Shown piece after piece: positions 16,651-19,451 of a stretch of DNA of 64,000 bases; within the stretch, counting starts at the first letter, position 1, and every line of letters starts with the position of its first letter. Under the pieces are notes generated by a model that ran no database searches, was not told the DNA's origin, and was given only the letters and a program-made list of their open reading frames with translations. The translations under genes and the position numbers were made by a program. Origin of the DNA: Oligoflexia bacterium (lineage in GTDB: Bacteria > Bdellovibrionota > UBA1018); NCBI GenBank assembly GCA_023701205.1, contig JAMPXJ010000007.1, forward strand, positions 261 through 64,260, read 5' to 3'.

Positions 16651-18039
16651 ATGTCCGACACGCCGAAACGTTCCTGGGCCGAGCCTTTCAAGATCAAGAT
16701 GGTCGAGCCGCTCAAGATGACCACGCGCGAGGAGCGCAAGAAGGCGCTTCAGGAGGCGGGTTACAATACCTTCCTGCTCAGATCCGAGGACGTGTACATC
16801 GATCTGCTCACCGACAGCGGCACGAACGCGATGAGTGATTACCAGTGGGCCGGGATGATGCTCGGGGACGAGGCTTATGCCGGCAGCAAAAACTTCTACA
16901 ACCTCGAGAATGCCGTCCAGAAATTTTACGGCTACAAGTACCTCGTGCCCACCCATCAGGGACGCGGCGCCGAGCACATCATCTCGAAGATCCTGATCAA
17001 GCCGGGCGATTTCGTCCCGGGCAATATGTATTTCACCACGACACGCGCGCACCAGGAGCTCGCCGGCGGAAACTTCGTCGACGTCATCATCGACGAGGCG
17101 CATGACCCGACGAGCCTGCATCCGTTCAAAGGGAACGTCGATCTCGACAAGGTTGAGAGCCTCATCAAGAAGGTCGGCGCGAAGAAGATCCCCTATATCT
17201 CCATCGCGGTGACGGTGAATATGGCGGGTGGCCAGCCCGTCTCGATGGAAAACATCCGCGCCGTAAGCAAGCTCTGCCGCAGCCACGGGATCAAGGTGAT
17301 CCTCGATGCCACGCGCGCGGTGGAGAACGCCTATTACATCAAGACGCGCGAAAAGGGCTTCGAGGATAGGACTGTCGCGCAGATCCTCCATGAGATGTGC
17401 TCCTACACCGATGGCTGCACCATGAGCGGCAAGAAGGACCTCATGGTGAACATCGGCGGGTTCCTCGCCATCAACGACTGGGATGTTTTCGAGGAGGCGC
17501 GCAATATGGTCGTGCTCTTCGAAGGTCTGCACACCTATGGCGGTCTCGCCGGGCGCGACCTCGAGGCGATGGCTCGCGGCATTGAGGAGGCCGTCCAGTA
17601 CGATCACATCCGGGCCCGCATCGGTCAGGTCGAATACGTGGGCGAGAAGCTCAAGGCGCTCGGGATCCCGATCGTGCAGCCGACCGGGGGGCATGCGATC
17701 TTCCTGGATGCGCGCAAGTTCCTGCCGCATCTGAAGCAGGATCAGTTTCCCGCGCAGACGCTCGCGGCCGAGCTCTATCTCGAGTCGGGCATCCGCGCCA
17801 TGGAGCGTGGCATCGTCTCCGCCGGACGCAACAAGGATACGGGCGAGCACTATTATCCCAAGCTCGAGCTGGTCCGCCTGACCTTCCCGCGGCGCGTATA
17901 CACGCAGGCGCATTGCGATGTCACGGTCGAGGCCGTCGAGGCGACCTTCGAGGCCCGCAATCAGATGAAGGGCCTGAAGATGGTTTACGAGCCGAAGTAT
18001 CTGAGATTCTTCCAGGCGCGGTTCGAGCCGCTGGCCTGA
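16651..18039 (+). CDS. tpl: tyrosine phenol-lyase-like beta-eliminating lyase (PLP)
   Basis: Near-collinear to remembered Citrobacter TPL: [58 protein letters not shown]-lysine region [17 protein letters not shown], and RAMERGI.SAGRN..TGEH..PKLE.VRLT.PRRVYT.AH.DV. Confidence 0.8.
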
Positions 18040-18086
18040 GGGGAGCGAGCTAGAACTTGGGGGGCAGTTGCGCTACAGTGCCTTCC

Positions 18087-19451
18087 ATGGAAAAAAAGCA
18101 TCGCACGATCATCGAGCCCTTCAAGATCAAGGTCGTTGAGCCTCTTCCCCTGCCTTCGCGCGAGGAGCGCGAGGAGTACCTGCGGAAGGCGGGCTACAAT
18201 CTCTTCCTGGTGCCGTCGCGGGAGGTGACCTTCGACTTCCTGACGGACTCGGGCACGACGGCGATGAGCGCCGAACAGTGGGGCGCGATGATGGTGGGTG
18301 ACGAAAGCTACGCGGGCTCGCGGAGCTTCGAGAAATTCGAGAAGGTCGTGCGCGAGCTGACCGGCTACTCCCACGTGATCCCGACCCATCAGGGGCGCGC
18401 GGCGGAGAAGCTGGTTTTCTCGCTGCTCGCGAAGCCCGGGATGAAGATCCCTTCCAATAACCACTTCGACACGACCCGCGCGAACATCGAGCAGCTCGGA
18501 GCCGAGGCGGTGGATCTGGTGATCGCCGAGGGAAAGGACCCCCAGAGCCGCCATCCCTTCAAAGGAAATATCGATCTCGCGCGCCTCGAGGCCTTTTGCC
18601 AGGAGAACCAAGGCAAGATCCCCTGCGGGATGCTCACGATCACCAACAATACCGGCGGCGGGCAGCCCGTTTCGCTCGAGAACATCCGGGGCGCGGCGGC
18701 GATCTACCGCAAGCATGGAATCCCGTTCATCCTCGATGTCTGTCGGTTCGCCGAGAACAGCTACTTCATCAAGATGCGCGAGCCCGGACAGCAGGAGCGC
18801 CCCGTGCGCGACATCGCGCGCGAGACCTTCGCGCTCGCCGATGGATGCATGATGAGCGCAAAGAAAGACGCGCTCGTGAACATCGGCGGCTTCATCGCGC
18901 TGAAGGATCCGGCCTGGGTGGACCGGCTGCGGAGTCTCCTGATCCTGACCGAGGGCTTCCCGACCTACGGGGGGCTCGCCGCGAGGGATCTCGAAGCCAT
19001 GGCCGTGGGACTGATCGACGTGCTCGAAGAAAGTTACCTGGAATACCGCCTGGCCGTGACCCGATACATGGCCGAGAAGCTCAACCGCCTGGGAATCCCC
19101 ACGGTGCAGCCGCCCGGAGGCCACGCGGTTTACATCGACGCGAAGTCGTTCCTGCCGCATATCCCGCCGGCGCAGTTTCCCGGCCAGGCGCTCGTGGTGG
19201 AGCTTTTCCGTTCCGAGGGCATCCGTTCCTGCGAGATCGGCTCCGTGATGTTCGGAAAAGCGGCGACGATGGAGCTCGTGCGCTGGGCTTTTCCGCGGCG
19301 GGTGTATACGCAGAGCCATTTCGACTATATTTTGGAAGGAATGGAAGACCTGGTCGCGAACAAGGACCGCCTGCGCGGGATGCGCATGACCTATGAGCCG
19401 CCGTTTTTGCGCCATTTCACGGCGCGGTTTGAGCCGCTCTTGGATGGATAG
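18087..19451 (+). CDS. tnaA: tryptophanase-like beta-eliminating lyase (second paralogue)
   Basis: Same fold, but the signature regions are closer to TnaA: RFAENSYFIKMRE, MMSAKKDALVNIGG and EGFPTYGGLAARDLEAMAVGL. The start was moved to MEKKHRTIIEPF. Confidence 0.75.
   Translation: MEKKHRTIIEPFKIKVVEPLPLPSREEREEYLRKAGYNLFLVPSREVTFDFLTDSGTTAMSAEQWGAMMVGDESYAGSRSFEKFEKVVRELTGYSHVIPTHQGRAAEKLVFSLLAKPGMKIPSNNHFDTTRANIEQLGAEAVDLVIAEGKDPQSRHPFKGNIDLARLEAFCQENQGKIPCGMLTITNNTGGGQPVSLENIRGAAAIYRKHGIPFILDVCRFAENSYFIKMREPGQQERPVRDIARETFALADGCMMSAKKDALVNIGGFIALKDPAWVDRLRSLLILTEGFPTYGGLAARDLEAMAVGLIDVLEESYLEYRLAVTRYMAEKLNRLGIPTVQPPGGHAVYIDAKSFLPHIPPAQFPGQALVVELFRSEGIRSCEIGSVMFGKAATMELVRWAFPRRVYTQSHFDYILEGMEDLVANKDRLRGMRMTYEPPFLRHFTARFEPLLDG

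Follow-up and report, generated by a model that had tools for sequence, protein, structure and literature searches.

The closest described relatives of the two genes considered here are the tyrosine phenol-lyases (TPLs) of Citrobacter freundii and Erwinia herbicola (EC 4.1.99.2; PDB 2ez1, 1tpl and 1c7g) and the tryptophanase (TnaA) of Escherichia coli (EC 4.1.99.1). Structural work has established that Asp137 of the indole-lyases hydrogen-bonds the indole NH. In the E. coli indole-lyase, pocket residues determine the specificity. The five positions that separate indole-lyases from phenol-lyases were taken from PMC5805759, which gives the indole-lyase pocket as Asp137, Phe304, Val394, Ile396 and His463 in E. 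coli (Ec) numbering and the TPL-specific pocket as Thr124, Met288, Met379, Arg381 and Phe448. Known tryptophanases have a kcat of about 1-7 per second and a KM of about 0.1-0.8 mM, and every one of the 18 diverse TnaA homologues purified for a 2026 panel produced indole (PMC12980246). In enterobacteria, TyrR and CRP act as activators of the tpl genes (PMC10170061). The E. coli tnaCAB operon includes the leader peptide gene tnaC and the permease gene tnaB. A precedent for a tryptophanase and a TPL in one organism is Symbiobacterium thermophilum, which we take to carry two tna genes in tandem (TnaA-TnaA), with its tpl gene elsewhere. This organism is mentioned in the TPL review PMC10170061, whose abbreviation list contains StTpl for Symbiobacterium thermophilum Tpl.

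The window analysed here, that is, the whole 64,000-nucleotide stretch of DNA, belongs, unlike the C. freundii and E. herbicola enzymes, to a metagenome-assembled genome of the Oligoflexia (Bdellovibrionota). It carries, head to tail on the forward strand and with both ORFs intact, gene A, a TPL (16651-18039; 462 aa, ATG start), and gene B, a tryptophanase-type (tryptophan indole-lyase-like) beta-eliminating lyase (18087-19451; 454 aa from ATG). The original prediction of two full-length beta-eliminating lyase genes in this arrangement is borne out, and the motifs it quoted are all found in the translations. The gap of 17 nt that it gave holds for a longer form of gene B read from a TTG at 18057 (18057-19451, forward strand, 464 aa), but not for the favoured ATG at 18087, which leaves a spacer of 47 nt (18040-18086). 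The ATG is favoured by the N-termini of homologues and supported by the NCBI call, a 454-aa protein (P0001) of 100% identity; the TTG stays a possible start because GGGGAG lies 10 nt upstream of it. The existing NCBI names, ‘tyrosine phenol-lyase [Oligoflexia bacterium]’ for gene A (P0121) and ‘tryptophanase’ for gene B, describe both genes correctly. GC3 values of 0.85 for gene A and 0.84 for gene B are within the host range, and the pair is therefore long resident.

Gene A is a clear tyrosine phenol-lyase by family model and residues, and is predicted to release phenol from L-tyrosine. It matches Pfam PF01212 (Beta_elim_lyase, E = 6.5e-84) and scores 804.5 bits on the NCBIfam TPL equivalog TIGR02618, above the cutoff of 720.7. 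Its best PDB matches are TPLs (E about 1e-204), and its alignment with the C. freundii enzyme is gapless over 450 residues (10-459, E = 1.9e-202). The catalytic residues of the C. freundii and E. herbicola TPLs are kept (Lys256, the PLP-binding Lys257, Tyr71, Arg100, Asn185, Asp214, Arg217 and Arg404), the K+ site is intact, and Thr, Arg and Phe occupy Cf positions 124, 381 and 448, all of which upholds the earlier description of the first gene as TPL-like. The five-residue signature, TLMRF, is identical to the TPL pocket at four of five positions, the exception being Met288, replaced by a Leu that is present in 120/120 close homologues. A neighbour-joining tree places gene A within the TRF clade (98% bootstrap), sister to the C. 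freundii TPL.

Gene B belongs to the same Pfam family (PF01212, E = 1.5e-66) and passes the NCBIfam ‘tryptophanase’ subfamily model NF009709 (639 bits, cutoff 285), but it fails the TnaA equivalogs TIGR02617 (458.9 versus 825.8 bits) and NF053783 (514.9 versus 750) and is also below the TPL equivalog cutoff. The TnaA equivalogs are clade-specific: E. coli TnaA passes TIGR02617 only and PDB 8sbg (‘Tryptophanase’, Bacteroidota-type) NF053783 only. The failure of gene B says little, because PDB 8sij (‘Tryptophanase 1’) passes neither and, as gene B does, just the NF009709 subfamily model. These two structures are the best structure-database matches to gene B (E = 5e-130 for 8sij and 1.6e-132 for 8sbg).

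The pocket of gene B reads D/F/C/I/H at Ec 137/304/394/396/463, identical to the indole-lyase state at four of the five positions. The fifth, Cys for Val at Ec 394, differs from E. coli tryptophanase and is common to 8sbg and 8sij, two entries that carry the name tryptophanase in their depositions; the DFCIH of 8sij is identical to that of gene B, and DFC[I/V]H is found in 120/120 of its closest homologues. Gene B keeps G52, E69, Y71, R100, F123, N185, D214, R217, K256, K257, N262, R404 and F449, and the catalytic set Tyr74, Arg103, Asn198, Asp227, Arg230, Lys269, Lys270 and Arg419 is conserved in full, together with the K+ site. It shares the fold family of E. coli tryptophanase at about 42% identity; a match in fold does not by itself tell a TnaA from a TPL. 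An insertion of 10 residues that precedes Ec F136 in the E. coli enzyme is absent from gene B, and the loop that follows I396 is shorter by 8 residues. This deletion was rejected as a marker of the gene B clade, within which the loop varies in length from 11 to 23. From the pocket we infer tryptophan specificity for gene B. The earlier view of the second gene as TnaA-like thus holds for the pocket and for the catalytic and K+-site residues, though at the level of family models it reaches only the subfamily; indole release is accordingly a prediction, because gene B passes the subfamily model but no TnaA equivalog.

In the neighbour-joining tree, gene B belongs to a separate clade (100% bootstrap) that does not contain the structurally solved tryptophanases, whether of E. 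coli, of Bacteroidota or others, 8sij and 8sbg included. The deep nodes have less than 50% support, so the label ‘TnaA-type’ reflects pocket residues rather than resolved orthology. Identity to the solved tryptophanases is 42-47%, and by score gene B is equally close to TPLs. Its 120 closest homologues are 75-100% identical and come from several phyla, with 75-81% identity across Bdellovibrionota, Myxococcota, Planctomycetota, Verrucomicrobiota and Methylomirabilota. The clade is large, highly conserved, environmental and uncharacterised: no assayed member was found in the literature (the sequences of the 18-enzyme panel of PMC12980246 lie outside the comparison), it is absent from a published survey of tnaA diversity, and source databases label its members inconsistently as ‘tryptophanase’ or ‘tyrosine phenol-lyase’.

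Upstream of gene A, the intergenic region 16472-16650 is flanked by divergently oriented genes. At 40% G+C, against 63% for the window, it is matched by just 0.3% of equal-sized windows, and it contains sigma-70-like matches on the forward (16583-16610) and reverse (16518-16490) strands, which are consensus matches only. Its small ORFs (MFMTK, MSKIDGAG, MIMLGNFKCPR and MGILNVQDRRGGLIYFNVS) contain no Trp and no convincing Shine-Dalgarno sequence precedes them, and a TnaC-like leader peptide was rejected on these grounds. A regulatory RNA or attenuator was likewise rejected: Rfam searches of the whole window at gathering thresholds gave no match, RNA folding was no better than that of shuffled sequence (z = 0.13 for 16472-16650 and -0.23 for the downstream region), and the leader, spacer and downstream region had no significant similarity in the other 160 fetched loci. 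An AT-rich leader devoid of a Trp-containing TnaC, as first described, is therefore what the region offers, but rather than an attenuator it is probably an ordinary region of divergent promoters. A forward-strand scan found no terminator-like site between the genes, which are probably transcribed as one message.

No TyrR-type architecture like that of the enterobacterial tpl genes was identified at the locus, in an analysis that did not include a specific TyrR-box search, and neither a tnaC leader peptide nor a tnaB permease, the companions of tnaA in E. coli, is present. A TnaB/Mtr/TyrP-like permease was found neither in the window nor in the 160 fetched loci. With neither a permease for Trp or Tyr nor a regulator or leader peptide near the pair, induction by substrate is unsupported. 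The neighbouring genes have unrelated Pfam functions (LysM, S13 peptidase, amidohydrolase, M48 and APH), and none of eight neighbouring proteins (0/8) has homologues in the other loci.

The arrangement had been called unusual; it is uncommon but recurrent, a pairing of two well-known enzyme types rather than a new kind of system. A TPL gene followed by a TnaA-like gene was found in 5/46 close genome loci, from Bdellovibrionota and Verrucomicrobiota, and in 2/80 metagenome TPL loci. Loci L007, L012 and L023 repeat this gene order, and the mechanically called ORFs there lie 0-3 nt apart. The TPL and gene B trees concur in placing the Verrucomicrobiota pairs beside the Bdellovibrionales pair L007 (100% and 88% bootstrap). 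In L133 and L158 the partner of the TPL comes from TnaA-like clades other than that of gene B, which suggests that the arrangement was put together there independently. With the tandem loci also scattered in a poorly resolved gene B tree, a single origin of all the pairs is unsupported. The literature yielded no relevant paper describing a tandem of TPL and TnaA or a tryptophanase from Bdellovibrionota.

Taken together, we consider it likely that the locus is a two-gene unit, probably read as one message, in which gene A is a TPL and gene B a tryptophan indole-lyase whose environmental clade is uncharacterised. A recent tandem duplication that left two genes redundant in specificity would fit two adjacent members of one family on the same strand, yet it is refuted, and its probability is negligible: gene A and gene B are only 49% identical over 455 aa (BLASTP, E = 6e-164), each shares 75-90% identity with members of a large clade of its own, and their signatures, TLMRF and DFCIH, differ. 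The original prediction had proposed tree placement and a check of the specificity residues as the way to settle this point, and the two genes proved to differ in signature and to lie in separate clades, both well supported. Because they differ in both respects, they are not a simple duplication but old paralogues, assigned by their residues to different specificity groups. It is also rather unlikely, if more plausible, that gene B is no tryptophanase because its clade has moved to another substrate for beta-elimination or beta-substitution, such as a substituted tryptophan, an S-substituted cysteine, serine or cysteine, so that the pair would be a TPL with a lyase of other specificity. The separation of the clade from every named tryptophanase, failure of both curated TnaA equivalogs, the Cys at Ec 394 and the shortened loop all suit such a shift, and known TnaA and TPL enzymes are promiscuous, accepting serine, cysteine and S-alkylcysteine; set against this are the four discriminating residues in the indole-lyase state, including Asp137, the occurrence of the fifth in two PDB tryptophanases, the invariance of the pocket across 120 homologues, and 8sij, which fails the TnaA equivalogs likewise.

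The adjacency itself might mean nothing, the two being chance neighbours that act independently in catabolism under separate promoters. About 90% of the close loci in the gene B clade have no partner gene, and the same is true of about 97% of the TPL loci; the 47-nt spacer exceeds those of the other pairs, and the start of gene B has no clear Shine-Dalgarno sequence. We nevertheless judge chance quite improbable, as the same order and orientation recur in five genome loci of two phyla with congruent trees, the foreign partners in L133 and L158 point to independent assembly, and the flanking genes of the pair are never conserved, differing at every locus. A bolder reading, to which we give little credence, is that the pair is a small mobile cassette that has passed between Bdellovibrionota and Verrucomicrobiota, also assembled independently with other TnaA-like clades and ecologically selected, or else that the gene B clade acts on something other than tryptophan; such a cassette would be selected for releasing phenol and indole together or for scavenging tyrosine and tryptophan together, for example in predatory or prey-lysing lifestyles.

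For the favoured two-gene unit of TPL and indole-lyase, the predicted chemistry is that of the two families. Gene A would convert L-Tyr and H2O to phenol, pyruvate and NH4+, and gene B L-Trp and H2O to indole, pyruvate and NH4+. Both enzymes would bind PLP, the vitamin B6 cofactor, through an internal aldimine with the second Lys of a KK motif, with a Tyr from the partner subunit as general acid and a monovalent-cation site. As for the physiological role of the pair, we infer that it would strip the side chains off tyrosine and tryptophan, with pyruvate and ammonium entering central metabolism and phenol and indole released as by-products; their use as signals or antimicrobials is speculation. 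In other respects, the locus would represent ordinary amino-acid catabolism by two textbook enzymes. Because the gene B clade is large and conserved and has no characterised member, a single assay within it would be enough to annotate environmental genes by the thousand. Should both activities prove real, some Bdellovibrionota would be able to produce indole and phenol themselves, and since predation by Bdellovibrio is reportedly impaired by indole (Dwidar et al. 2015, as cited in PMC8537960), a tryptophanase-type gene in this phylum is of interest for predator-prey signalling.

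Two beta-eliminating lyase genes stand in tandem on the forward strand, as the original prediction stated: gene A (16651..18039), an ORF of 462 aa with an ATG start, and gene B (18057..19451), of 464 aa when counted from a TTG codon. Their translations share 49% identity across 455 residues (E = 6e-164), both match Pfam PF01212 (Beta_elim_lyase), and all six motifs first quoted for the pair are found in them. The 17-nt gap originally given presupposes the TTG start of gene B. A spacer of 47 nt, with gene B starting at the ATG at 18087, is more likely, because its NCBI protein (P0001, 454 aa, 100% identical) starts at this codon and the homologues typically carry 5–10 residues ahead of the conserved RTIIEPFKIK; a start at TTG 18057, with GGGGAG 10 nt ahead of it, is possible. 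A scan found no terminator-like site between the genes, and their co-transcription is predicted as likely. Both have a GC3 of 0.84–0.85, within the host range of 0.74–0.89, so the pair is no recent arrival in the window.

By every sequence test applied, gene A is assigned as a tyrosine phenol-lyase (TPL). It scores 804.5 bits against a cutoff of 720.7 for the NCBIfam equivalog TIGR02618, the solved structures that match it best are TPLs throughout (E about 1e-204 to 1e-201), and its residues 10–459 align to TPL structures without gaps. When aligned with Citrobacter freundii TPL, Escherichia coli tryptophanase (TnaA) and two PDB tryptophanases, it conserves G52, E69, Y71, R100, F123, N185, D214, R217, K256, K257, N262, R404 and F449 (C. 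freundii numbering). In a comparison of 50 sequences, five pocket positions separate tryptophan indole-lyases (D137/F304/V394/I396/H463) from TPLs (T124/M288/M379/R381/F448) (PMC5805759); gene A reads T/L/M/R/F, and the Leu at position 288 is present in 120/120 of its closest homologues, which are 79–90% identical, consistently bear the name TPL and belong to Bacteroidota, Ignavibacteria and Bdellovibrionales.

Gene B is best described as a tryptophanase-type lyase of a clade without a characterised member. Its five discriminating residues are D/F/C/I/H, the indole-lyase state at four of five positions, and the catalytic and cation-site residues are complete, which bears out the tryptophanase-like character first proposed for it. 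The exception, Cys in place of Val394 (E. coli numbering), is common to PDB 8sbg and 8sij, both deposited as tryptophanases, and the DFC[I/V]H signature occurs in all 120 closest homologues. Among solved structures, gene B is about equally near TPLs and tryptophanases (E = 1e-132 to 1e-112). The only NCBIfam model it passes is the broad subfamily NF009709 ‘tryptophanase’ (639 bits versus 285), and it falls below the cutoffs of both TnaA equivalogs and of the TPL equivalog. Missing the TnaA equivalogs counts only weakly against the assignment, since each of these models is specific to a clade: TIGR02617 alone accepts E. coli TnaA, NF053783 alone accepts 8sbg, and neither accepts 8sij or gene B. 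Indirect support comes from a 2026 sampling of tryptophanase sequence space, in which 18/18 purified enzymes made indole (PMC12980246). An 8-residue gap after the Ile was rejected as a diagnostic mark, as the loop that contains it ranges from 11 to 23 residues inside the clade of gene B. Labels of homologues with 75–81% identity and a DFC[I/V]H pocket are split between ‘tryptophanase’ and ‘tyrosine phenol-lyase’, the latter on many JGI and some NCBI records (e.g. P0007 and P0101); judged by the pocket, naming them TPL is probably a mistake.

Phylogenetic placement, the check first suggested for the pair, puts the two proteins into different specificity clades. In a neighbour-joining tree of 111 sequences (references, fetched loci and 50%-identity representatives; 50 bootstraps), gene A lies within the clade with the T-R-F signature (98% bootstrap), sister to C. 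freundii TPL, and gene B within its own D-I/V-H clade (100%), apart from the group of E. coli TnaA, 8sij and 8sbg. Deep nodes have no resolution, and many TnaA-like (D..H) lineages surround TPL, which forms a single group. Because they fall in different clades, A and B are ancient paralogues, and a recent duplication is ruled out.

The 50%-representative search also returned, from outside the window, proteins of 850–930 aa with two beta-eliminating-lyase domains each (P0241–P0248, P0253, P0261 and P0266). Six of them (P0241–P0243 and P0246–P0248) show the TPL-type T124/M379/R381/F448 in the C-terminal half, with a variable position 288; this half has every catalytic residue but Tyr71, which is retained in the N-terminal half, where the PLP lysine and other catalytic residues are lost. 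Tyr71 in beta-eliminating lyases comes from the partner subunit, and these proteins therefore look like fused pseudo-heterodimers with one complementary active site.

The arrangement, first called unusual, is indeed uncommon, but it recurs in other loci and is therefore not unique. Among 80 genome loci with relatives of gene B, a TPL gene lies directly upstream on the same strand in 5 of the 46 at a minimum of 70% identity and in 0 of the 34 more distant ones: L007 (Bdellovibrionales, 488-kb contig), L030 (Bacteriovoracaceae), L012 and L019 (Chthoniobacterales; in L019 only the last 39 TPL residues are visible at the contig edge) and L023 (Verrucomicrobiae, 1.78-Mb contig). The intergenic gap in L007, L012 and L023 is 0–3 nt by mechanical ORF calls, and the flanking genes differ in every locus. 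Focused trees group the TPLs of L012 and L023 with L007 and a Bdellovibrionales TPL (100%), and their partners with the L007 partner (88%); the agreement of the trees indicates that the two genes passed as a unit, by inheritance or transfer, between Bdellovibrionota and Verrucomicrobiota. Among 80 metagenome loci with relatives of gene A, a downstream paralogue occurs in two only, L133 and L158. The partners there share 58% and 54% identity with B and fall into other D-I-H clades, which suggests that the TPL-then-TnaA-like order arose on more than one occasion. L012 and L019 are two contigs of one Chthoniobacterales MAG (SMAG_U3017) with a nearly identical pair on each; the copies are sisters (100% bootstrap), and duplication of the locus, heterogeneity between strains or redundant binning could explain them. 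In L023, a pyridoxamine 5′-phosphate oxidase gene, encoding a PLP salvage enzyme (PNPOx_N and PNP_phzG_C domains; L023:3948–4523, + strand, contig CAVWPA010000003.1), immediately precedes the pair in the same orientation, which could be coincidence or cofactor supply for two abundant PLP enzymes.

The AT-rich leader noted upstream is real: 16472–16650 has 40% G+C against 63% for the window, within the lowest 0.3% of same-size windows, and separates gene A (+) from a divergent gene (15620..16471, −). Sigma-70-like consensus matches occur in both directions; if the forward match at 16583–16610 were a promoter, the 5′ UTR would span about 35–40 nt, too short for a tnaC-type attenuator. No small ORF of the region contains Trp, in agreement with the initial remark that no Trp-containing TnaC is obvious there. 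The region is conserved in no other fetched locus, the regions folded show no folding energy beyond shuffled sequence, Rfam has no match in the whole window, and no TnaB-like permease was found in the window or the fetched loci. By Pfam, the neighbours are unrelated: a LysM protein, an S13 D-Ala-D-Ala carboxypeptidase, a HutI-like amidohydrolase, an M48 peptidase, an APH kinase and hypothetical proteins. The next ORF after gene B, a hypothetical one (19598–20560, +, 320 aa) with an AT-rich flank (19438–19664), has a G+C of 0.52 and a GC3 of 0.56, against 0.74–0.89 in surrounding genes. It has neither a Pfam match nor a homologue among the fetched loci, and could be a recent acquisition or a spurious gene call. 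Two more AT-rich islands (<42% G+C in 179-nt windows) lie at 481–735 and 32970–33273.

The NCBI record already names both genes correctly, B as ‘tryptophanase [Oligoflexia bacterium]’, and organisms with both enzymes are known, e.g. Symbiobacterium (PMC10170061). We found no literature description of a TPL–TnaA tandem or a Bdellovibrionota tryptophanase, and Oligoflexia, Myxococcota and Planctomycetota go unmentioned in a tnaA survey of 221 sequences. The pair is a recurrent pairing of well-known enzyme kinds, and the only real gap is the large environmental clade of gene B, for which no characterised representative was found.

The observation thus stands, and the sequence tests on A and B support its interpretation. 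Since both proteins have the full machinery of the PLP-enzyme family, activity as a homo-oligomer is expected for each; the predicted products are phenol from Tyr for A and indole from Trp for B, in both cases together with pyruvate and ammonium. A signalling or antimicrobial role of these volatiles is a possible, speculative idea; curiously, predation by Bdellovibrio is reported to be inhibited by exogenous indole (Dwidar et al. 2015, cited in PMC8537960). In a phylum rich in predators and consumers of peptides and amino acids, the most parsimonious interpretation is that the pair would serve to catabolise Tyr and Trp, the bulkiest two of the aromatic amino acids.
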